Source: an uncultured Fibrobacteraceae bacterium (GTDB lineage Bacteria > Krumholzibacteriota > Krumholzibacteriia > LZORAL124-64-63). From it: a DNA stretch of 29,138 nucleotides. Under the pieces are notes generated by a model. That model ran no database searches and was not told where the DNA came from. It was given only the letters and a program-made list of their open reading frames with translations. Shown one piece after another: positions 1 through 15,254 of the stretch. The position numbers and the translations under genes were made by a program. The DNA lies in the NCBI GenBank assembly GCA_964384055.1, contig CAYLIV010000045.1, positions 1-29,138 on the forward strand. The letters are read 5' to 3'. The stretch's first letter is position 1. Each line of letters starts with the position of its first letter.

Positions 1-212
1 AGGGGCTACCATCTTTGGCACCTTCTTCACAAACATGTGGAGGAGGTGCTTTCTTTTTGCAGTAGGGGATGCATTGACCTGTTCCCATCCCGAATCAAAC
101 AACGCCGGGCGGTGTGAAGGGGAAAGCCTGCGTGAGTTGAAATCTGGTCCAGTCGGAAGTTGGTGAATCTGTCAGGTTGAACCAGGATCTCCTTCTTCAC
201 CAACACGGCAAC

Positions 213-1895
213 TCAGGAACGAGACGGCCCGGATTGATCCTCTGGAATGTTATCAAAGTTTCTGAGTACCCGCTCGATGATTGTATCCGCCGCTGCAGCT
301 TCTGCGGCGACAACATGGGTGGCGCCAGCTTTCTCCAGGCGCTTCACATCGGTTTCGTAGGTGGTTCGCACGGTGATCCGCAGATCGGGTGCCGCAAGTC
401 GCGCGGCTCCAGTTACCCGAGCCGTTGCGTCCGGATCGTTGATAGCGACCACGAGTTCGCTGGCATCGGCAACCCCGAGATGCTCGAGCACCTCTGCGCT
501 CGTAACGTCTCCGAAGCAAGCCGGCTCTCCCCGCCGAGCCGCCTCCCGAACATTCTCGCTGTTGAGATCGACGATAATGTACCGCGCACCTATCTGTGTG
601 AGAGAGCGGGCCAGACCCCTGCCCGTCAAGCCATACCCGGCGATGATGACGTGGTCCCTCAATGACTCGGATTTCTGTATCTCCGCTATGGTTTGCACCT
701 GGAGCAGACGCGTCAAGTGGTTGAGCTTTCCCAATCCAGCCGCCAGGTGGGGCCCCAGCGCGAGCCCAAATGGCGTGGCCAGCATCGAAAGGATGATTGC
801 CACAGTGAGATTGCCCCGAAGAGGTTCTTCCAGCAGGCCTGTTCCGCTCGCCGCTAGAAGGAGGACAAAGGCGAACTCTCCGACCTGGGACAAAGAAGTG
901 GCGGTTAGGATTCCCACACGCGCCGGAAGCCTCATGATGGAAGCGGCAAGGAAAATGATGATGAACTTACCAACGATGATGGCGCCGAATAGTCCGAGAA
1001 TGGGGAGCAGGTTATCGAGCACGTTCCCGAGATCGAGCAGCATGCCGATAGAGACGAAGAACACACTGGCGAGAACATCGCGCAACGGGACAAGATCGGA
1101 GATCGCCTGCTCGCGATACCGGCTACCGGAAACGACCAAGCCGGCGAGAAACGCGCCGAGGGCCAGCGAGACGCCCGCGGTTGATACCACCCAGGCGGTC
1201 CCGAGGCAGATCAGAAAGACGGAAAGTACGAAGAGATCGCGCTCCCGCGTGCGTGCAATTGCTTCGAGAAAACGAGGCACGACCAATCGCGACGCCACCA
1301 GTACGCCAGTGATCACTGCTGCAGCCTTCAGTAGCAGGACCAGCACGCTCGTACCAGCGCTGGCGGTGTCACAAAGGACAGGAATGAGTAGGACCATCGG
1401 TACGACACAGAGGTCCTGAAAGATCAGAATGCCAAGTGCCAGCCGACCGTGCGGCGTCTCGAGTTCTCCCCGGGTCGACAGGCCCCTCAGGACAATGGCA
1501 GTGCTCGATACGGCGATAATGAAACCCAGCAACAGTCCCGATCGAATGTCTCGCCCGAACAGATCATTGAGCCATAACACGATCAGGATAGTGGTGCCTA
1601 CCTGGACGGCGCCTCCTACGGCGATCGGTCTCCAGAGCCGGCGGACCCGGTTCAAGGAGAGCTCGAGTCCAATGCCGAAGAGGAGCAGCACAACGCCAAG
1701 TTCGGCGAGAGTTTCGACCTGGTGGATATCCTGAACAAGTCCCAGCGCGTTGGGCCCGATAACTGTTCCGGCGACGATGAACCCCGCGATAGACGGCACT
1801 CCCAAGCGGCGTAGAAACGCAACTACGGCAACAGCTGCCGCGAGAATTATAACCAGGTCCAAGAGGAAGACTAGCTCAGTCACAGCCGTTCCCAT
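213..1895 (-). CDS. Monovalent cation:proton antiporter-2 (CPA2) family, KefB/KefC-like, with C-terminal RCK/TrkA-N NAD-binding domain (copy 1)
   Basis: The 560-aa ORF starts at an ATG. About twelve hydrophobic helices show the Na+/H+-exchanger pattern (GPNALGLV, LLFGIGLE). They are followed by a Rossmann motif, IIAGYGLTGRGLARSL…IVDLN, typical of RCK domains. Confidence 0.85.
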   Translation of the reverse strand: MGTAVTELVFLLDLVIILAAAVAVVAFLRRLGVPSIAGFIVAGTVIGPNALGLVQDIHQVETLAELGVVLLLFGIGLELSLNRVRRLWRPIAVGGAVQVGTTILIVLWLNDLFGRDIRSGLLLGFIIAVSSTAIVLRGLSTRGELETPHGRLALGILIFQDLCVVPMVLLIPVLCDTASAGTSVLVLLLKAAAVITGVLVASRLVVPRFLEAIARTRERDLFVLSVFLICLGTAWVVSTAGVSLALGAFLAGLVVSGSRYREQAISDLVPLRDVLASVFFVSIGMLLDLGNVLDNLLPILGLFGAIIVGKFIIIFLAASIMRLPARVGILTATSLSQVGEFAFVLLLAASGTGLLEEPLRGNLTVAIILSMLATPFGLALGPHLAAGLGKLNHLTRLLQVQTIAEIQKSESLRDHVIIAGYGLTGRGLARSLTQIGARYIIVDLNSENVREAARRGEPACFGDVTSAEVLEHLGVADASELVVAINDPDATARVTGAARLAAPDLRITVRTTYETDVKRLEKAGATHVVAAEAAAADTIIERVLRNFDNIPEDQSGPSRS

Positions 1896-2269
1896 CCGAT
1901 AAACCCCGGAGTTTTACCAAGCGGAATTCAGCCAGTTTGTTGAATCCGCCGCCGCCGACCTTAACATCGCAGAACGGCCCGGTATACAGATTATAGCCAG
2001 TCAAAACCGGCTGACCACAGAGTACTTATCCTCTGAGCTGGCACAACTTTCATTACTCCAGATTAACAGGGCCAGGCCGCGAGCATGTGTGAAAGATCTT
2101 CGATTCTTGCCTGCTCCCACTTCATGGCGTCTGCTGACTACCATCTCGAATGCCTCCCTCACCGATGGTTGGGGGAGGCAATTCTGTGTGCGAAGCGAAC
2201 CGATCAGCACTCATGGCCGATCTGGCATGGTCGCGTCGAGGAAAGGCACCCTCCCGGCGCGAAGCCAGG

Positions 2270-2965
2270 TCAAGGTGACGATCCCGGCGAACCGACAGGA
2301 ATCACGAACCGCAAGACACAGAAAAAATGTAGAGTTGTGCCTGCCAGCACGAACAGATGCCAGACGGCGTGATGGTAAGGGAATCCACGCCAGATGTAGA
2401 AGATAGCGCCGGCACTGTAAGCCGCGCCACCCATTCCCAGCCAGATCAGAGCCTGCATCGGGAGTGCCGCGGCAAGTGGTCGAAAGGCGATGGCCACGAG
2501 CCAGCCGAGGGCGAGGTAGAAAACGAGGGACAACCTTTTCCAGGGACGGCGCCAGACGACCTCGTAGACTATTCCCAGGGCCGCCAGCCCCCATCCCAGG
2601 CCGATGAGGGTCCAACCCCAGCCACCGCCCAGCACGATCAGGGCGAACGGCGTGTAGGTGCCGGCGATGAGCAGGTAGATGGCGCCATAATCCAGCAACT
2701 CGAAGACGAACTTGGCGCGGGCCGCGGTGAGGGCGTGATAGAGGGTCGAGGCAGCGTACAGGGTCAGTATGGACCCGCCGAAAATGGTGACGCCCACCAC
2801 GGTCTGCGCATCGCCTGACGCCGCAGCACGCCAAACAAGAATCACCAGGCCCACCGCGCCACCGAGTGTTCCGAGGCCGTGGGTGATCGCATGGGCGATC
2901 TCCTCGCCGCGTGAGAAACGATCATGCTCAAAGGTGCCACGCAACGGGACTCTCTCCTGATCCAT
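2270..2965 (-). CDS. Hemolysin-III / PAQR (YqfA) family membrane protein (copy 1)
   Basis: The 231-aa ORF starts at an ATG and has seven predicted TM helices. Family motifs are present: EEIAHAITHGLG, TLYHA, LLDYGAIYLLIAGTYTPF and YHHAVWHLFV. Confidence 0.85.
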   Translation of the reverse strand: MDQERVPLRGTFEHDRFSRGEEIAHAITHGLGTLGGAVGLVILVWRAAASGDAQTVVGVTIFGGSILTLYAASTLYHALTAARAKFVFELLDYGAIYLLIAGTYTPFALIVLGGGWGWTLIGLGWGLAALGIVYEVVWRRPWKRLSLVFYLALGWLVAIAFRPLAAALPMQALIWLGMGGAAYSAGAIFYIWRGFPYHHAVWHLFVLAGTTLHFFCVLRFVIPVGSPGSSP

Positions 2966-3012
2966 GGTGACAGGGCCGGTTGGCTCTGGGGCCGCCCCAG
3001 TGCAGGTCTAGC

Positions 3013-3048
3013 AGAAAAAAGCCCCGATCTCCAGAGAAGACCGGGGCC
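3013..3048 (-). terminator. Intrinsic terminator downstream of the RRM gene (copy 1)
   Basis: A 6-bp GC stem (gccccg/cggggc) with a 15-nt loop is followed on the minus strand by U6 (plus-strand A6 at 3015..3020). A second small hairpin, gcgcc-ttccg-ggcgc, lies at 3071..3085. Confidence 0.5.
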
Positions 3049-3098
3049 GTGAGGAAAATCGGGATTCACCGCGCCTTCCGGGCGCCGTGATCAGGTGC

Positions 3099-3368
3099 TT
3101 ACCACCTCGAGCCGCCGCGAGGCTCACGCGGGCGCGCCTCGTTGACGTTGAGAGCTCGACCGTCGACTTCCCGGCCATTGATCGCCTGGATGGCCTGCAT
3201 GGCTTCGTTGTCGTTCTCCATCTCCACGAATCCGAATCCCCGCGAGCGGCCGGAATCGCGATCGGTGACGACCGTGGCGCTGTTGACGGCGCCATGCTCT
3301 GCAAACAGGGAATTGAGGTCGGGGTCGGACGTGTCGAAGCTGAGGTTGCCCACATAGATCTTCTTCAA
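3099..3368 (-). CDS. RRM-type (RNP-1/RNP-2) RNA-binding protein with Arg/Gly tail (copy 1); TTG start
   Basis: The 89-aa ORF carries RNP-2 (KIYVGNLSF) and RNP-1 (RGFGFVEM). The start codon is TTG, since the plus strand reads caa at 3366..3368. A Shine-Dalgarno AGGAAG lies 7 nt upstream. The only alternative start is an internal GTG. Confidence 0.8.
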   Translation of the reverse strand: MKKIYVGNLSFDTSDPDLNSLFAEHGAVNSATVVTDRDSGRSRGFGFVEMENDNEAMQAIQAINGREVDGRALNVNEARPREPRGGSRW

Positions 3369-3437
3369 GACTGCACTTCCTTCGGAACTCGGAATCCGCC
3401 GTCATTAACAGATATCGGTTCAACTCGACGGATCTAC

Positions 3438-3462
3438 AAAAAAAGCCGGCAGGGTTGCCGAC
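3438..3462 (-). terminator. Terminator-like hairpin plus U7 inside the RRM upstream leader (copy 1); candidate attenuator or 3' end of an upstream small RNA
   Basis: Minus strand: gucggca-accc-ugccggc followed by uuuuuuu (plus-strand A7 at 3438..3444). The stem is better on the minus strand (G·U) than on the plus strand (C/A mismatch). It lies about 75 nt upstream of the RRM TTG start. Confidence 0.45.
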
Positions 3463-3976
3463 CGGGCGCAATATAGGTGGATTCGGGGGAAACACAAGGT
3501 ATTTCTCCGATCATCGGTTCCCTGCCAATGGTCCCGGTACCGGATGCACCTCGCTGTCTGATCACTGTTATAGTACTACGGCGAGTGCCCCGGCTCGCGG
3601 CCTCGGGAGTGCTCCAGCCGCGGTCTGGGAGGTGGCAGCCCAGGATTCAAATCTTGTGGCTCGAGAGGTGCGGCGGAGGATCGTCCAGACAGGAGTATAT
3701 CAATTCCGGGACGGAAAACCACTTCCGACGGAGCACTCCGGGAGAGGTTCGCATACTGTCCCATACGGGCTACCATCTTTGGCACCTTCTTCACAAACAT
3801 GTGGAGGAGGTGCTTTCTTTTTGCAGTAGGGGATGCATTGACCTGTTCCCATCCCGAATCAAACAACGCCGGGCGGTGTGAAGGGGAAAGCCTGCGTGAG
3901 TTGAAATCTGGTCCAGTCGGAAGTTGGTGAATCTGTCAGGTTGAACCAGGATCTCCTTCTTCACCAACACGGCAAC

Positions 3977-5659
3977 TCAGGAACGAGACGGCCCGGATTG
4001 ATCCTCTGGAATGTTATCAAAGTTTCTGAGTACCCGCTCGATGATTGTATCCGCCGCTGCAGCTTCTGCGGCGACAACATGGGTGGCGCCAGCTTTCTCC
4101 AGGCGCTTCACATCGGTTTCGTAGGTGGTTCGCACGGTGATCCGCAGATCGGGTGCCGCAAGTCGCGCGGCTCCAGTTACCCGAGCCGTTGCGTCCGGAT
4201 CGTTGATAGCGACCACGAGTTCGCTGGCATCGGCAACCCCGAGATGCTCGAGCACCTCTGCGCTCGTAACGTCTCCGAAGCAAGCCGGCTCTCCCCGCCG
4301 AGCCGCCTCCCGAACATTCTCGCTGTTGAGATCGACGATAATGTACCGCGCACCTATCTGTGTGAGAGAGCGGGCCAGACCCCTGCCCGTCAAGCCATAC
4401 CCGGCGATGATGACGTGGTCCCTCAATGACTCGGATTTCTGTATCTCCGCTATGGTTTGCACCTGGAGCAGACGCGTCAAGTGGTTGAGCTTTCCCAATC
4501 CAGCCGCCAGGTGGGGCCCCAGCGCGAGCCCAAATGGCGTGGCCAGCATCGAAAGGATGATTGCCACAGTGAGATTGCCCCGAAGAGGTTCTTCCAGCAG
4601 GCCTGTTCCGCTCGCCGCTAGAAGGAGGACAAAGGCGAACTCTCCGACCTGGGACAAAGAAGTGGCGGTTAGGATTCCCACACGCGCCGGAAGCCTCATG
4701 ATGGAAGCGGCAAGGAAAATGATGATGAACTTACCAACGATGATGGCGCCGAATAGTCCGAGAATGGGGAGCAGGTTATCGAGCACGTTCCCGAGATCGA
4801 GCAGCATGCCGATAGAGACGAAGAACACACTGGCGAGAACATCGCGCAACGGGACAAGATCGGAGATCGCCTGCTCGCGATACCGGCTACCGGAAACGAC
4901 CAAGCCGGCGAGAAACGCGCCGAGGGCCAGCGAGACGCCCGCGGTTGATACCACCCAGGCGGTCCCGAGGCAGATCAGAAAGACGGAAAGTACGAAGAGA
5001 TCGCGCTCCCGCGTGCGTGCAATTGCTTCGAGAAAACGAGGCACGACCAATCGCGACGCCACCAGTACGCCAGTGATCACTGCTGCAGCCTTCAGTAGCA
5101 GGACCAGCACGCTCGTACCAGCGCTGGCGGTGTCACAAAGGACAGGAATGAGTAGGACCATCGGTACGACACAGAGGTCCTGAAAGATCAGAATGCCAAG
5201 TGCCAGCCGACCGTGCGGCGTCTCGAGTTCTCCCCGGGTCGACAGGCCCCTCAGGACAATGGCAGTGCTCGATACGGCGATAATGAAACCCAGCAACAGT
5301 CCCGATCGAATGTCTCGCCCGAACAGATCATTGAGCCATAACACGATCAGGATAGTGGTGCCTACCTGGACGGCGCCTCCTACGGCGATCGGTCTCCAGA
5401 GCCGGCGGACCCGGTTCAAGGAGAGCTCGAGTCCAATGCCGAAGAGGAGCAGCACAACGCCAAGTTCGGCGAGAGTTTCGACCTGGTGGATATCCTGAAC
5501 AAGTCCCAGCGCGTTGGGCCCGATAACTGTTCCGGCGACGATGAACCCCGCGATAGACGGCACTCCCAAGCGGCGTAGAAACGCAACTACGGCAACAGCT
5601 GCCGCGAGAATTATAACCAGGTCCAAGAGGAAGACTAGCTCAGTCACAGCCGTTCCCAT
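3977..5659 (-). CDS. KefB/KefC-like CPA2 antiporter with RCK domain (copy 2, identical translation)
   Basis: Identical 560-aa translation, offset +3,764. Confidence 0.85.
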   Translation of the reverse strand: MGTAVTELVFLLDLVIILAAAVAVVAFLRRLGVPSIAGFIVAGTVIGPNALGLVQDIHQVETLAELGVVLLLFGIGLELSLNRVRRLWRPIAVGGAVQVGTTILIVLWLNDLFGRDIRSGLLLGFIIAVSSTAIVLRGLSTRGELETPHGRLALGILIFQDLCVVPMVLLIPVLCDTASAGTSVLVLLLKAAAVITGVLVASRLVVPRFLEAIARTRERDLFVLSVFLICLGTAWVVSTAGVSLALGAFLAGLVVSGSRYREQAISDLVPLRDVLASVFFVSIGMLLDLGNVLDNLLPILGLFGAIIVGKFIIIFLAASIMRLPARVGILTATSLSQVGEFAFVLLLAASGTGLLEEPLRGNLTVAIILSMLATPFGLALGPHLAAGLGKLNHLTRLLQVQTIAEIQKSESLRDHVIIAGYGLTGRGLARSLTQIGARYIIVDLNSENVREAARRGEPACFGDVTSAEVLEHLGVADASELVVAINDPDATARVTGAARLAAPDLRITVRTTYETDVKRLEKAGATHVVAAEAAAADTIIERVLRNFDNIPEDQSGPSRS

Positions 5660-6033
5660 CCGATAAACCCCGGAGTTTTACCAAGCGGAATTCAGCCAGT
5701 TTGTTGAATCCGCCGCCGCCGACCTTAACATCGCAGAACGGCCCGGTATACAGATTATAGCCAGTCAAAACCGGCTGACCACAGAGTACTTATCCTCTGA
5801 GCTGGCACAACTTTCATTACTCCAGATTAACAGGGCCAGGCCGCGAGCATGTGTGAAAGATCTTCGATTCTTGCCTGCTCCCACTTCATGGCGTCTGCTG
5901 ACTACCATCTCGAATGCCTCCCTCACCGATGGTTGGGGGAGGCAATTCTGTGTGCGAAGCGAACCGATCAGCACTCATGGCCGATCTGGCATGGTCGCGT
6001 CGAGGAAAGGCACCCTCCCGGCGCGAAGCCAGG

Positions 6034-6729
6034 TCAAGGTGACGATCCCGGCGAACCGACAGGAATCACGAACCGCAAGACACAGAAAAAATGTAGAGTT
6101 GTGCCTGCCAGCACGAACAGATGCCAGACGGCGTGATGGTAAGGGAATCCACGCCAGATGTAGAAGATAGCGCCGGCACTGTAAGCCGCGCCACCCATTC
6201 CCAGCCAGATCAGAGCCTGCATCGGGAGTGCCGCGGCAAGTGGTCGAAAGGCGATGGCCACGAGCCAGCCGAGGGCGAGGTAGAAAACGAGGGACAACCT
6301 TTTCCAGGGACGGCGCCAGACGACCTCGTAGACTATTCCCAGGGCCGCCAGCCCCCATCCCAGGCCGATGAGGGTCCAACCCCAGCCACCGCCCAGCACG
6401 ATCAGGGCGAACGGCGTGTAGGTGCCGGCGATGAGCAGGTAGATGGCGCCATAATCCAGCAACTCGAAGACGAACTTGGCGCGGGCCGCGGTGAGGGCGT
6501 GATAGAGGGTCGAGGCAGCGTACAGGGTCAGTATGGACCCGCCGAAAATGGTGACGCCCACCACGGTCTGCGCATCGCCTGACGCCGCAGCACGCCAAAC
6601 AAGAATCACCAGGCCCACCGCGCCACCGAGTGTTCCGAGGCCGTGGGTGATCGCATGGGCGATCTCCTCGCCGCGTGAGAAACGATCATGCTCAAAGGTG
6701 CCACGCAACGGGACTCTCTCCTGATCCAT
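6034..6729 (-). CDS. Hemolysin-III / PAQR family membrane protein (copy 2)
   Basis: Identical 231-aa translation, offset +3,764. Confidence 0.85.
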   Translation of the reverse strand: MDQERVPLRGTFEHDRFSRGEEIAHAITHGLGTLGGAVGLVILVWRAAASGDAQTVVGVTIFGGSILTLYAASTLYHALTAARAKFVFELLDYGAIYLLIAGTYTPFALIVLGGGWGWTLIGLGWGLAALGIVYEVVWRRPWKRLSLVFYLALGWLVAIAFRPLAAALPMQALIWLGMGGAAYSAGAIFYIWRGFPYHHAVWHLFVLAGTTLHFFCVLRFVIPVGSPGSSP

Positions 6730-6776
6730 GGTGACAGGGCCGGTTGGCTCTGGGGCCGCCCCAGTGCAGGTCTAGC

Positions 6777-6812
6777 AGAAAAAAGCCCCGATCTCCAGAG
6801 AAGACCGGGGCC
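6777..6812 (-). terminator. Intrinsic terminator downstream of RRM gene (copy 2)
   Basis: Same sequence as 3013..3048. Confidence 0.5.
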
Positions 6813-6862
6813 GTGAGGAAAATCGGGATTCACCGCGCCTTCCGGGCGCCGTGATCAGGTGC

Positions 6863-7132
6863 TTACCACCTCGAGCCGCCGCGAGGCTCACGCGGGCGCG
6901 CCTCGTTGACGTTGAGAGCTCGACCGTCGACTTCCCGGCCATTGATCGCCTGGATGGCCTGCATGGCTTCGTTGTCGTTCTCCATCTCCACGAATCCGAA
7001 TCCCCGCGAGCGGCCGGAATCGCGATCGGTGACGACCGTGGCGCTGTTGACGGCGCCATGCTCTGCAAACAGGGAATTGAGGTCGGGGTCGGACGTGTCG
7101 AAGCTGAGGTTGCCCACATAGATCTTCTTCAA
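6863..7132 (-). CDS. RRM-type RNA-binding protein (copy 2); TTG start
   Basis: Identical 89-aa translation, offset +3,764. This copy keeps the native upstream region, which continues into unique sequence at 7540. Confidence 0.8.
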   Translation of the reverse strand: MKKIYVGNLSFDTSDPDLNSLFAEHGAVNSATVVTDRDSGRSRGFGFVEMENDNEAMQAIQAINGREVDGRALNVNEARPREPRGGSRW

Positions 7133-7201
7133 GACTGCACTTCCTTCGGAACTCGGAATCCGCCGTCATTAACAGATATCGGTTCAACTCGACGGATCTA
7201 C

Positions 7202-7226
7202 AAAAAAAGCCGGCAGGGTTGCCGAC
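7202..7226 (-). terminator. Terminator-like hairpin plus U7 in RRM leader (copy 2)
   Basis: Same sequence as 3438..3462. Confidence 0.45.
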
Positions 7227-7712
7227 CGGGCGCAATATAGGTGGATTCGGGGGAAACACAAGGTATTTCTCCGATCATCGGTTCCCTGCCAATGGTCCCG
7301 GTACCGGATGCACCTCGCTGTCTGATCACTGTTATAGTACTACGGCGAGTGCCCCGGCTCGCGGCCTCGGGAGTGCTCCAGCCGCGGTCTGGGAGGTGGC
7401 AGCCCAGGATTCAAATCTTGTGGCTCGAGAGGTGCGGCGGAGGATCGTCCAGACAGGAGTATATCAATTCCGGGACGGAAAACCACTTCCGACGGAGCAC
7501 TCCGGGAGAGGTTCGCATACTGTCCCATACGGGCTACCAGTTTCCTGAGTACGGCTTCCCCCAGCGGAGGGAGGCCGTCTCTGTTTCAAGACAGAAATCA
7601 CCGCAGCCACAACCGACTCTTGCGCACCGGGCCGATTTGTCTATTCTTCCCTCGATCGGAATCATCCAGATGGCCGCTGCCGGCCACGCTCCAATCTCGG
7701 AAAGGCAACGCC

Positions 7713-11698: not shown

Positions 11699-11832
11699 GG
11701 TTGTCCTTCGGTTCTGGATTGTACTAGGTAGTCATTGCTAACAAGGTGGTAGTTGGCCGCGATTTCGGCAAGGGCTGGAACACGCGATACGAAGCGGTAG
11801 CCGCGAAGCCGGCAGCCGCTCTCGAAGAACAC

Positions 11833-11859
11833 GGCCGGGCCACCAGAGGCGGCCCGGCC
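11833..11859 (-). terminator. GC-rich hairpin downstream of trxA, followed on the minus strand by a weak U-tract (guguucuuc)
   Basis: 9-bp perfect stem GGCCGGGCC/GGCCCGGCC with a loop ACCAGAGGC. Confidence 0.4.
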
Positions 11860-11895
11860 AACCAAAGAGGCACTGGTTAGAGCCTCGACCGGGTG

Positions 11896-12222
11896 TCAAT
11901 TCAAGGCGCTGTCCAGAGCCGAAGCCAGCTCCTCCTTGGGCTTCACGCCCACGTAACTCGTATGCACGTTGCCGTCCTTGAAGATCATTACCGTGGGAAT
12001 GCCGCGGATGCCGAATCGGGTGGCGAGCTCTCGATTGTCGTCCACGTTGATCTTGGCGACCTTCACCTTGCCGTCGTACTCGGCGGCGAGCTCCTCGACG
12101 ATCGGGCCGATCATCTTGCAGGGGCCACACCAGGGCGCCCAGAAATCCACGAGCACCGGAACATCGCTGGCAGCCACTTCGACGTCGAAATTGTTACCGT
12201 CAACATTCATGCTGTTAGCCAT
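11896..12222 (-). CDS. trxA: Thioredoxin
   Basis: 108 aa with the WAPWCGPCK active site and a GIRGIPT motif. The ATG start is at 12222. Confidence 0.9.
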   Translation of the reverse strand: MANSMNVDGNNFDVEVAASDVPVLVDFWAPWCGPCKMIGPIVEELAAEYDGKVKVAKINVDDNRELATRFGIRGIPTVMIFKDGNVHTSYVGVKPKEELASALDSALN

Positions 12223-12442
12223 GGTTGATTCCTTTCGGATTTCGGACTGTTTGCAGTCTGTGCAATGGTAGCTGCAGACCGTGAACGCTGTTTTCGGAGA
12301 GCATCATGCAGCTCGCGTGCCCGATCGGGGCAATGAAGATAAATTTTCTCATGAATCAGTTAACGATTATCATTGCAATGTTTTAGGGGTATTAATTTTC
12401 AATCTAATCGTGTCCTGTGATGACACGACAAAGTCCGGGTGT

Positions 12443-12480
12443 TTGACGTTAGCGTTGCATGCAGCTATATTGTTGCAACA
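12443..12480 (+). promoter_or_regulatory. Near-consensus sigma-70 promoter (TTGACG, 17 bp, TATATT) with an overlapping 10-bp perfect palindrome TGTTGCAACA (12471..12480) and flanking TTGCATGC palindromes (12454..12461 and 12487..12494)
   Basis: An AT-rich island of about 150 bp (12340..12490) between divergent trxA and the sigma-54 activator gene. The hexamers and spacer were counted from the sequence. Three TTGCA-containing palindromes lie within 45 bp. Confidence 0.5.
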
Positions 12481-12535
12481 TAAGTGTTGCATGCTACGCC
12501 GGGGTCGTCTTCCGCGGTCATTGTGGTGGCTGACG

Positions 12536-13954
12536 ATGACCGGGTGCTGCCATCAGGAGGTGCGGACCGTGTCCATCGCAGACGATTCGAAGCAGCCGGA
12601 ACTACCGTGCGAGGCCGGACCCGCGCTCAACAGTTTCGGCCCGGCGTGCTTGCTGCCGGTGCTGTCGGCCATGCGGGAAGGCGTCGTGGGCGTGGATGGC
12701 GATCTGCGGATTATCGGCGTGAATCCGGCTGCCGAGCGCATTCTCGGTCGCGACTTCGTCGAACTGGCCGGCAGTCCGGTGTGTACGCTCTACGGCGACG
12801 AGAGCTGTCCCTCGGACCAGCTGGCCGAGACCTTGCGCAGCGGTGAGCCGATCCTCGATTTCCAGACGTCCATCAGGCTGCGGAGCGGTGGCAGGGGGCA
12901 GGTGCTCATCCGCTCGGTGCCCCTCGAGCCCCGCCAGGGCGGCTCCATGGGGGTCGCACTCATACTTGGCGACGTGACCGAGGTCACCGAGTTGCGTAAA
13001 CGGATCAGGCGCCGCCGGCGCCTCGGCGATATCGTCGGCCAGGACCAACGCATGCAGGAGCTGTTTCGTCTGATCGAGGACGTGGCGGCGAGTCCGGCCA
13101 GCGTGCTTATCCGCGGTGAGAGCGGCACGGGCAAGGAGCTGGTGGCCAAGGCCATCCACAACGAGAGCAACCGGGCGTCCGGGCCTTTCGTGCAGGTCAA
13201 CTGTTCCGCGCTGTCCGAGTCGCTGCTCGAAAGCGAACTCTTCGGGCATGCCAAGGGCGCGTTCACCGGCGCAATCGCGTCGCGCCGGGGGCGTTTCGAG
13301 GAAGCGAGCGGCGGCACCATCTTCCTGGATGAGATCGGTGATGTGAGCCCGGTGATCCAGGTCAAGCTGCTGCGGGTGCTGCAGGAGCGGGTCGTGGAGC
13401 GGGTCGGTGAGAATCAGCCGCGGCCGGTGGATGTGCGGGTCGTCTCGGCCACCAACCGGGACCTCGCGGCGCTGCTGGCGACCGGCCGGATGCGCGAGGA
13501 CTTCTTCTACCGGATCAAGGTCGTATCACTGGAGATTCCTCCGTTGCGCCAGCGGCGACAGGATATCCCGCTGCTGGTCCGCCATTTTCTGGATCGTGCT
13601 CGCGCAACCGATGAAGCGGCCGCCGACGTGGACATCTCCAGCGCCGCCATGTCGACGATGATGGCGCACGCCTGGCCGGGCAACGTTCGCGAGCTGGCCA
13701 ATGCCGTCGAACACGCGCTCGTGCTGCGTCGTGGTGGGGTGATCCAGCCGCAGCATCTACCGGTGGAGATATCCCGCGGCGGGCAGGCCGGTCTGCGGGA
13801 GGTGCCTTTGCATAGCGACCAGGAGAGGGATCTCATCCTGGCGGCGCTCGAGCGCGCCGGCTGGAACCGCTCCCGCGCGGCGCGGCAACTCGGCATCGAC
13901 CGCACGACACTCTGGCGAAAGATCAGGGAATACAGGCTTCAAGAGTCGTCCTGA
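12536..13954 (+). CDS. Sigma-54-dependent Fis-family transcriptional activator with N-terminal PAS-like sensor domain
   Basis: Walker A GESGTGKE, the sigma-54 contact motif GAFTGA, ESELFGH, and a C-terminal Fis-type HTH ([22 protein letters not shown]). The start is taken at the ATG at 12536, preceded by GGTGG. The ATG at 12491 or the ORF start at 12281 are less likely because 12281..12490 is AT-rich promoter-like DNA. Confidence 0.8.
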
Positions 13955-14133
13955 TTGCTGTCCAGGTCGGTCGCACCGTCCGCCTGGTTCCGGCGATTGC
14001 GCTGTCTGACCGCCTGTCCGAGCAGGAATTCAATCTGCCCGTTGACACTGCGGAACTCCGCTTCGGCCCAGCGCCGCAGCTCTGTGTAGAGCTGCGGGCT
14101 GATGCGGAGGGGAAACGTCTTGCGGGCTGCCAC
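13939..14133 (-). CDS. Arc/MetJ-type ribbon-helix-helix DNA-binding protein (64 aa); GTG start
   Basis: [35 protein letters not shown] matches the Arc-family beta-alpha-alpha pattern. The start is GTG (plus-strand cac at 14131..14133) with GGAG 8 nt upstream. The gene overlaps the 3' end of the sigma-54 activator gene convergently by 16 bp. Confidence 0.5.
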
Positions 14134-15043: not shown

Positions 15044-15091
15044 CGTCGAGCCTCCAGCGCTTTGGGATCCGGTGATCCCTGGTTCGTGTCA

Positions 15092-15108
15092 GATATCATA
15101 ATGATATC
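15092..15108. promoter_or_regulatory. 17-bp perfect palindrome GATATCATaATGATATC in the AT-rich promoter region of the SPFH–RHH operon; candidate operator
   Basis: Read directly from the sequence. It lies about 50 bp upstream of the SPFH start codon in a low-GC stretch of about 60 bp. Confidence 0.5.
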
Positions 15109-15155
15109 ACTATGACATCATACACACAATCGGTATTTCTATTCGGCACTGAAAT

Positions 15156-15185
15156 AAAAAAAACCGGCCGGAGGATCCGGCCGGT
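15156..15185 (-). terminator. Intrinsic terminator downstream of pepT
   Basis: A 9-bp stem ACCGGCCGG/CCGGCCGGT with loop AGGAT is followed on the minus strand by U8 (plus-strand A8 at 15156..15163). Confidence 0.7.
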
Positions 15186-15254
15186 ACATTAATCCCAATA
15201 TATTGTTGTAATTGAATGAATTACGATTCAAGCGCAATCAGCTGCGGACTCGAA

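Follow-up and report, generated by a model that had tools for sequence, protein, structure and literature searches.

Gene context and orthologous loci

The window analyzed here, the whole stretch of 29,138 nucleotides, contains an intergenic region bounded by two divergently transcribed genes, one for a thioredoxin (trxA) and one for a PAS/sigma-54 activator. The genes and the predicted hairpins associated with trxA are as follows.

11832..11860, minus strand: terminator-like hairpin directly past the trxA stop codon (consensus scan; stem of 13 pairs, 11 of them G-C, and a weak T tail)
11896..12222, minus strand: trxA, thioredoxin of 108 aa with a WCGPC active site (Pfam Thioredoxin, E = 2e-34), the proposed target gene
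12249..12286, minus strand: hairpin predicted by RNA folding within the putative 5' leader of trxA
12536..13954, plus strand: activator gene, encoding PAS - sigma-54 AAA+ (GAFTGA) - HTH_8 (Pfam domains; GAFTGA seen in the translation)

An earlier note on this DNA described the intergenic region as the control region of the activator gene. This holds for the activator's own promoter and the dyads discussed below, but the description missed a predicted sigma-54 promoter on the opposite strand that faces trxA (12322..12307). The lesson for annotation is that an intergenic region of this kind is to be read on both strands, the palindromes being one half of a divergent control region.

In scans of genomes and metagenomes, only two close loci were found, L081 and L001, the latter from a Candidatus Krumholzibacteriia MAG with an activator of 66% identity. 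More than 120 orthologs of the activator, at 61-69% identity, are present in the protein database, several of them named by their source as Krumholzibacteriota or Krumholzibacteriia. Our comparison set comprises 14 loci: the window and 13 orthologous loci from Krumholzibacteriota MAGs (L001, L081 and eleven more distinct ones). A wider set, used for the array, comprises 176 loci, 18 of them orthologous and 158 belonging to other bEBPs (approximately 0.9 Mb). A Pirellulales locus (L051), in which an activator of 43% identity has a thioredoxin-like neighbor (a membrane-anchored CPPC protein), was dropped, as it is without a convincing -24/-12 element and without the array.

Gene order is the same in all 14 distinct loci, with a sulfatase gene followed by trxA on one strand and the activator gene on the other, such that trxA and the activator gene are divergent throughout. 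Downstream of the activator gene lie a gene for a small RHH protein and a Band_7 gene, in convergent orientation. The start of trxA has a constant offset to the WCGPC codons across the loci, and the gene appears to be monocistronic, given the terminator-like hairpin at 11860..11832. When the 14 intergenic regions are aligned with MAFFT, mean column identity is 44%, and only three conserved islands stand out between the two genes: a -24/-12 element, the -35 hexamer together with the array, and the start codons.

An array of three dyads on the activator promoter

The elements on the activator side of the intergenic region are listed below.

12443..12448, plus strand: -35 hexamer TTGACG of the sigma-70-type promoter of the activator gene (promoter scan)
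12466..12471, plus strand: -10 hexamer TATATT of the same promoter, filling the spacer between dyads 1 and 2 (promoter scan)
12454..12497, no strand: two-fold symmetric array of 44 bp with six GTTG/CAAC half-sites, proposed enhancer (UAS) and operator
12454..12465: dyad 1 of the array
12472..12479: dyad 2 of the array (inside 12471-12480)
12486..12497: dyad 3 of the array

The earlier note had placed a sigma-70-type promoter before the activator gene, and the comparison bears this out. In the promoter scan TTGACG-17-TATATT scores 10/12, and the 1-kb region has three promoter-like sites against 0.3 expected from shuffles. In 12 of the 14 loci, the array is preceded at 11 bp by a -35 of the form TTGC or TTGA, with a gap of five to six bases from TTGCG/TTGACG to the array. 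The position of the -10 is kept in all 14 loci, with the consensus GATAnT (T at position 6 in every locus, A at position 2 in 12), and mean information is 1.28 bits in this spacer versus 0.86 in the spacer between dyads 2 and 3. The promoter passes E. coli stringency in four of the 14 loci only, because the -35 is TTGCGN in most of them.

As the note had also described, a perfect 10-bp palindrome, TGTTGCAACA (12471-12480), has its first base on the last T of the -10 box; dyad 2 within it covers the predicted transcription start of the activator gene, near 12478. The two flanking copies of TTGCATGC are present as well, the second exactly where it had been placed (12487-12494) and the first at 12455-12462 instead of 12454-12461. 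The claim that TTGCATGC is a palindrome has to be corrected: the 8-mer itself is not palindromic, and the palindromic cores are TGCATGCA in the first copy and GCATGC in both. The copies are better described as the cores of 12-bp dyads, the conserved 12-mers GTTGCATGCAGC (12454-12465) and GTTGCATGCTAC (12486-12497), each of which fits GTTG-N4-CAAC at seven of the eight specified positions.

The three dyads form an array with the pattern GTTG-N4-CAAC, GATAAT or GATAnT (the -10), GTTGCAAC, N6 and again GTTG-N4-CAAC. Its symmetry axis is the center of TGTTGCAACA, and in the window its dyad centers follow at intervals of exactly 16 bp. The array of the window matches 22 of the 24 specified positions, and those of the other comparison loci match 19-24 (14 loci in all). 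A single 10-bp palindrome is unremarkable in this DNA, since the window has 61 perfect ones and 32 of 100 shuffles contain GTTGCAAC one or more times. The composite 44-bp pattern, with up to three mismatches, is found once in the window and in none of 100 shuffles. Within the wider set, the array score reaches 19/24 or more in every one of the 18 orthologous loci and never exceeds 16/24 in the 158 belonging to other bEBPs. The dyads are thus conserved upstream of every orthologous activator gene covered, and the reading of the earlier note passes the test it had set for itself on this point.

Among the 14 loci the arms of the dyads are almost invariant and the central N4 is free to vary, which is the signature of protein-DNA recognition and not of RNA structure. 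It could be argued that the palindromes act as RNA hairpins in the leader of the activator mRNA and control its translation or stability, since part of dyad 2 and the whole of dyad 3 would be transcribed and dyad 3 ends 4-10 nt before the Shine-Dalgarno sequence in most orthologs, where this sequence and the start codon lie within 10-16 nt of the dyad (the leader in the window is longer than in most orthologs). Such stems would be of 4 bp only, however, and their arms are invariant without compensatory change while the supposed loop varies; dyad 1 would be untranscribed, being located upstream of the -10 box, and an Rfam scan covering the entire window, run with gathering thresholds, matched no family. 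We regard an RNA-level role as extremely improbable.

The bases of the array can be read in two ways, either as three dyads (N4, N0, N4) or as two overlapping 18-bp inverted repeats, TGCAAC-N6-GTTGCA, with half-site centers 12 bp apart and two outer half-sites in addition. The geometry of the second reading resembles that of the NtrC site, TGCACC-N5-GGTGCA. As the half-sites are separated by N4 in the outer dyads and by N0 in the central one, no one rigid dimer geometry can accommodate the three dyads together. In the searchable literature, the motif strings matched only primers and unrelated sequences, and not the site of any described factor.

With respect to the predicted start, dyad 1 lies between -35 and -10, dyad 2 over +1 and dyad 3 over about +10 to +25, and the array as a whole occupies the promoter of the activator gene in its spacer, its -10 box and its +1 to +25 region. 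A protein of any kind that binds at these positions would be expected to impede RNA polymerase. We lean, if only slightly, toward the view that occupancy of the array lowers transcription of the activator gene, as negative autoregulation; autoregulation through the activator's HTH, as put forward in the earlier note, is plausible.

A conserved, predicted sigma-54 promoter facing trxA

On the other side of the intergenic region, two further elements are found.

12307..12322, minus strand: predicted sigma-54 (-24/-12) promoter of trxA, GGGCAC-gcgag-CTGCA, conserved in the 14-locus alignment
12330..12440, no strand: AT-rich spacer between the sigma-54 promoter and the array, proposed DNA bend permitting looping

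Promoters dependent on sigma-54 are recognized by a GG at -24 and a GC at -12, exactly 10 bp apart (TGGCAC-N5-TTGCW), and the element in the window has both at this distance. On the trxA strand, its form across the 14 loci is TGGCAC-N5-yTGCa, in which the GG and the GC are invariant in 14 of 14 loci, the 5-nt spacer varies and the flanking sequence is unalignable. The element is oriented towards trxA and lies upstream of it, the -12 being 85 bp from the ATG in the window and 55-86 bp from it across the loci. The top minus-strand match to the -24/-12 pattern is at this same place in 13 loci; in the remaining one (L170) a match within trxA comes first and the homologous element, with a score of 15, second. 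Shuffling each locus gave p = 0.001-0.12 for the element, with a Fisher combined p of 2.5e-16 that overstates independence owing to shared ancestry.

In the window alone, a match with two mismatches is at chance level (10 found versus 7.2 expected), and the case therefore rests entirely on conservation. This raises the alternative that the -24/-12 match is fortuitous and that trxA is transcribed from an unrecognized sigma-70-type promoter within the AT-rich spacer, for which the weak minus-strand TTAATA-18-GATAAT at 12395..12366 from the promoter scan would be a candidate. A fortuitous match is difficult to reconcile with a GG and GC that are invariant and at the same place in 14 diverged loci amid unalignable surroundings. 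Moreover, minus-strand sigma-70-like matches occur in two of the 14 loci only, at differing positions, and a conserved sigma-70-type promoter for trxA was not found in the set. We consider this alternative very improbable.

From the sigma-54 promoter, transcription of trxA is predicted to start near 12296, with a leader of approximately 74 nt. Expression of trxA would thus depend on sigma-54. A gene for sigma-54 (rpoN) is absent from the 29-kb window, and its presence in the genome is implied by the activator, a bEBP with an intact GAFTGA loop. For a housekeeping gene like trxA to rely on sigma-54 alone is unusual; there may also be a second thioredoxin gene or some weak constitutive promoter.

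Geometry of the array, the spacer and the predicted sigma-54 promoter

Enhancers of bEBPs are dyad-symmetric sites, usually more than one, located roughly 80-200 bp upstream of the -24/-12 element, and this is the arrangement found for the array. Its center is 167 bp from the GC of the -12 in the window and 146, 147, 155-159 (nine loci), 167 and 121 bp from it in the other loci. The distance is therefore 146-167 bp in 13 of 14 loci, within which it differs by steps of about one helical turn, and the exception (L175, 121 bp) is out of phase. A Rayleigh test gives p ~0.002 at periods of 10-11 bp, with a best period of 11.6 bp, though the loci are related and their independence is overstated. The distances are compatible with helical phasing, no more than that.

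The spacer between the two elements contains the lowest GC content of the window, as the earlier note had observed: 36% over the 150 bp from 12332, followed by 36.7% at 15082. The note had assigned this AT-rich island to the activator promoter, whereas the position of the sigma-54 element makes it the spacer between the proposed enhancer and that promoter. A 40-bp AT peak (62-88% AT, compared with 29-52% locus-wide) is centered 36-83 bp upstream of the -12 in all 14 loci, even in those with approximately 30% AT overall. Across the set it is this AT-rich composition that is conserved and not the sequence of the spacer. The E. coli-type IHF consensus, WATCAANNNNTTR, occurs with at most one mismatch in four of the 14 loci, at differing positions and none of them in the window. 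Because the sequence is unconserved and no IHF consensus is shared, we infer only a spacer that may be bendable or may bind an architectural protein.

A conserved -24/-12 promoter depends on an enhancer. Because the intergenic region has no further conserved block that could provide one, we take the array to be that enhancer. The dyads could also be nothing but an operator of the activator's sigma-70 promoter, serving autoregulation or another repressor and having no part in the expression of trxA. The overlap of the array with the -35/-10/+1 region of a positionally conserved sigma-70-type promoter fits this explanation, as a bound protein would obstruct RNA polymerase, but it leaves the -24/-12 element that faces trxA in 14 of 14 loci without the enhancer it needs. 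Nor would a pure operator need a distance of 146-167 bp to be held in 13 of the loci with an AT peak in between. An operator function alone is quite unlikely in our estimation.

The activator as candidate binder

The activator contains the domains Sigma54_activat (PF00158, E = 8e-71), AAA_lid_14 (PF25601) and HTH_8 (PF02954, E = 1.5e-17), and has the AAA+ domain with GAFTGA and the C-terminal HTH_8 by which bEBPs are recognized. The nearest solved structures are those of ZraR, NifA, FleQ and NtrC, with ZraR as top PDB match (2e-91); no close solved PAS structure was found for the PAS domain. Gene callers place the start at GTG 12569, which yields a protein of 461 aa (P0001). We think that ATG 12536 is the more likely start, since the N-terminus it adds is colinear with that of the L081 ortholog (MNRQPEPNAR-TVSIA, aligned at the motif TVSIA).

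Several observations make the activator the candidate binder of the array. It is a complete bEBP, its HTH is almost invariant among orthologs and variable in paralogs, and among the 176 loci the array occurs only beside this orthogroup. In addition, the region offers no other conserved candidate for an enhancer, and genes for one-component bEBPs are commonly divergent from the sigma-54 promoter that they control (PMC4641369). We infer that the adjacent activator binds the array.

A different factor, encoded elsewhere, might instead occupy the array and co-regulate trxA and the activator gene, for example as a redox repressor, with the enhancer of the activator located elsewhere or unneeded. 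Thioredoxin genes of other bacteria are under dedicated redox regulators, and the N4, N0, N4 spacing of half-sites is unusual for a single dimeric HTH protein. Yet the array is present only beside this activator orthogroup and at none of the 158 other bEBP loci, the HTH of the activator is conserved in step with it, the sigma-54 promoter has no other conserved candidate enhancer, and the literature search described above returned no factor to which the motif belongs. Binding by such a factor appears decidedly unlikely, and we return to the adjacent activator as the protein that would act through the array.

The PAS domain of the orthogroup has two invariant cysteines, C83 and C91 (numbered from ATG 12536), in the motif VCxLFGxxxCPxD with a C-x7-C spacing. 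More distant homologs have C-x8-C-x3-C in the same segment, of which the third cysteine is deleted in this orthogroup. The invariant cysteines and the thioredoxin target lead us to suspect a redox input, and we tentatively suggest, at rather less than even confidence, that the signal is redox-related, be it thiol, metal or cluster-based.

Proposed mechanism

The sequences show the elements themselves, their conservation, geometry and restriction to this orthogroup, and the domains of the activator; the binder of the array, the dependence of trxA on sigma-54, autoregulation, bending and the kind of signal are proposals built on them. On this basis, the array is probably the enhancer through which the adjacent PAS/sigma-54 activator drives the divergent trxA, placed on the activator's own promoter. 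Its main role is most likely to activate trxA, and control of the activator gene would follow secondarily from the overlap. As the array overlaps the -35/-10/+1 region of that promoter, it probably serves autoregulation too.

In the model we propose, the -24/-12 promoter (12322..12307, minus strand) would drive trxA, with the array approximately 165-195 bp upstream of the predicted start. Resting dimers of the activator would sit on the array via the Fis-type HTH and damp their own sigma-70-type promoter. Upon a signal, the PAS domain would release the AAA+ domain, and three dimers, with six HTHs on six half-sites, would nucleate the active hexamer. The AT-rich spacer would bend, intrinsically or with an IHF/HU-like protein, allowing the hexamer to reach the closed complex of the sigma-54 holoenzyme. 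ATP hydrolysis would then open the promoter, leading to transcription of trxA with the leader predicted above.

With such a model, an uncharacterized activator that is conserved across an uncultured phylum is given a target (trxA), a DNA motif and a full promoter architecture. The array of six half-sites would constitute a compact, well-defined enhancer, and might serve as a redox-responsive genetic part.

Comparison with known systems

By analogy, the design is already well known from PspF, NorR and PexR, and it is the present example that is new. In E. coli, the gene for the bEBP PspF is divergent from its sigma-54 target pspA, and the enhancer sites overlap the sigma-70 promoter of pspF, which results in negative autoregulation, and looping is aided by IHF. 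PspF itself lacks a sensor domain, PspA exerting control over it in trans, and it has two enhancer sites, compared to the six-half-site array described here.

NorR of E. coli acts from a three-dyad enhancer that nucleates its hexamer (PMC2831303). In the NorR/norVW system, as in our model of the locus under study, the bEBP gene is divergent from the sigma-54 target, and three consecutive dyads are read as three dimers and one hexamer (PMC2831303). Between the enhancer and the promoter of the NorR system lies a bend site bound by IHF (PMC2831303), comparable to the bend proposed here, and NorR is a one-component sensor that is DNA-bound at rest (PMC2831303), as we propose for the activator. The differences concern the site, which is GT-N7-AC for NorR and GTTG-N4/N0-CAAC here and sets the array apart from sites of the NorR type; the sensor, which is a GAF domain with non-heme iron that senses NO in NorR and a two-cysteine PAS domain here; and the targets, NO-detoxifying enzymes in one case and thioredoxin in the other. 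In contrast to the NorR system, an E. coli-type IHF consensus is not found here.

PexR of Myxococcus xanthus provides a precedent for a bEBP enhancer that overlaps a housekeeping promoter (PMC12754779). Like the activator in our model, it is a bEBP acting on antioxidant genes with sigma-54 promoters, through three tandem interrupted palindromes (CACCG-N6-CGGTG), and the repeats at ahpC contain a sigma-A promoter that is down-regulated by the resting protein, making PexR both repressor and activator (PMC12754779). The sensor of PexR, however, is a Zn/Fe-binding GAF domain and its motif is another one, whereas Pfam finds a PAS and no GAF in the activator, which is thus not of the PexR type. Furthermore, the sigma-A promoter repressed by PexR is that of the target gene, whereas here the promoter in question belongs to the activator gene. 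As motif, sensor domain and target differ, we do not count the present locus as a member of the NorR, PexR or PspF systems.

With respect to the sensor, a parallel is OrpR of Desulfovibrio vulgaris, which shares the PAS - AAA+ - HTH arrangement and has PAS cysteines in the same segment (PMC8359166). Its PAS domain senses redox potential via a [4Fe-4S] cluster, for which the three cysteines of C-x8-C-x3-C are required, and OrpR binds the site GGGCGYRTTTTGCGCCC and targets the orp operons (PMC8359166), in both of which it differs from what we describe. As the orthogroup keeps only the C-x7-C and has lost the third cysteine, its PAS is not an OrpR-type sensor by that criterion.

The similarity to OrpR allows for a wider, more speculative reading, which we consider rather unlikely to hold in full. 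The locus would then be a thiol/redox homeostat of an undescribed kind, common to the phylum Krumholzibacteriota, in which a two-cysteine PAS domain derived from an OrpR-like Fe-S PAS detects oxidation, fires the sigma-54-dependent thioredoxin gene and is reset through reduction by thioredoxin, with the array pre-assembling exactly one hexamer over the activator's promoter. If so, this would be a direct feedback loop, in which thioredoxin resets its own activator.

A search of the literature on sigma-54 and thioredoxin returned only one case, the thioredoxin RB10378 of Rhodopirellula baltica, for which a promoter was predicted. To our knowledge, no cognate activator or enhancer of RB10378 is known. 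The sigma-54 promoter upstream of the gene was predicted by Studholme and Dixon (2004), as cited in PMC2754498, and is an in silico precedent for a stress-responsive sigma-54 thioredoxin gene, albeit from a different phylum. If the proposed control of trxA is correct, thioredoxin would join a short list of antioxidant genes under sigma-54/bEBP control, of which those established experimentally are ahpC and katB, with PexR.

Other elements of the intergenic region

Further candidates were set aside. The 10-bp palindrome CATTGCAATG (12371-12380) and the hairpin CGTGTC-N7-GACACG (12411-12429) are both unconserved in orthologs, and we regard them as incidental. The TTGCA motifs were inspected as possible -12 elements of a sigma-54 promoter for the activator gene; there is no GG 12 bp upstream of them on either strand.

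The predicted leader of trxA contains a hairpin of its own. The z-scores of the whole leader fold are weak, ranging from +0.89 to -2.1, and consensus folding of the leaders on the MAFFT alignment gave no pairs, the hairpins being out of register in the alignment. In single-sequence folds, a GC-rich hairpin of 5-8 bp with differing stem sequences recurs in 13 of the 14 loci.

PAS domain and start codon of the activator

The PAS domain of the activator, a protein with PAS, sigma-54 AAA+ and HTH_8 domains, contains the motif VCxLFGxxxCPxD, and the two cysteines of this motif (C83 and C91) are invariant across all orthologs compared.

12782-12808: codons C83 to C91 of the PAS domain, numbered from ATG 12536

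More distant homologs (L091, L008, L015, L051, and L097) have the arrangement C-x8-C-x3-C in their PAS domain, which is the pattern carried by the [4Fe-4S] PAS domain of OrpR, a redox-sensing regulator from Desulfovibrio vulgaris (PMC8359166).

Two start codons are possible for the activator, ATG 12536 and GTG 12569. The latter was chosen by the gene callers and is preceded by a strong AGGAGG. The N-terminus read from ATG 12536 is colinear with that of the orthologous locus L081, the motif TVSIA being common to both. The 14-nt sequence ACCGTGTCCATCGC is the same in the window and L081, with no differences. At its 3' end, the activator gene overlaps by 16 bp with a gene for a RHH_5/ParD-like protein, and the pair formed by the latter and the Band_7 gene is kept in many orthologous loci.

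13939-14133, minus strand: RHH_5/ParD-like gene (64 aa), upstream of Band_7

Leader and coding sequence of trxA

The predicted 5' leader of the thioredoxin gene trxA contains a GC-rich hairpin of 5-8 bp in 13 of the 14 loci (the window, L001, L081, L161-L165, L167, L168, L170, L172, and L174), with stem sequences that differ.

12249-12286, minus strand: GC-rich hairpin in the predicted trxA 5' leader

Folding energy z-scores of the leaders are weak (+0.89 to -2.1), and automatic alignment of the leaders did not bring the hairpins into register. In several loci the hairpin loop contains UGCAAC, the half-site sequence of the dyad array upstream of the activator.

A match to sigma-54 promoters is also located within trxA itself.

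12117-12132, minus strand: sigma-54-like match in the trxA coding sequence (WCGPC codons, TGGTGYGGNCCCTGCAA)

At the equivalent position in all 14 loci, the stretch encoding the active-site motif WCGPC of thioredoxin resembles the sigma-54 consensus TGGCAC-N5-TTGCA. When the 14 loci were scanned for sigma-54 promoters, this match took second place in 12 of them and the top place in L170; for L081 and L168 another site held rank 2. The likeness is a coding coincidence, and false positives from the WCGPC codons are to be expected when genomes are scanned for sigma-54 promoters.

Duplication and AT-rich stretches

Positions 3-7539 form a perfect tandem duplication with a unit of 3764 bp, which may be a genuine recent event or an assembly artefact. 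The stretches 3-3775 and 3767-7539 are 100% identical. Each unit carries one copy of two genes:

2270-3007 and 6034-6771, minus strand: HlyIII-family gene
3099-3401 and 6863-7165, minus strand: RRM_1 RNA-binding protein gene

Two elements lie within the AT-rich spacer between the predicted sigma-54 promoter and the dyad array, neither of which is kept in the aligned orthologous intergenic regions:

12371-12380: 10-bp palindrome CATTGCAATG
12411-12429: hairpin CGTGTC-N7-GACACG

A second AT-rich island, in which the palindrome CAATATATTG is found at 15196, separates two further genes:

15082-15231: AT-rich island (36.7% GC) between the Band_7 and M20 peptidase genes
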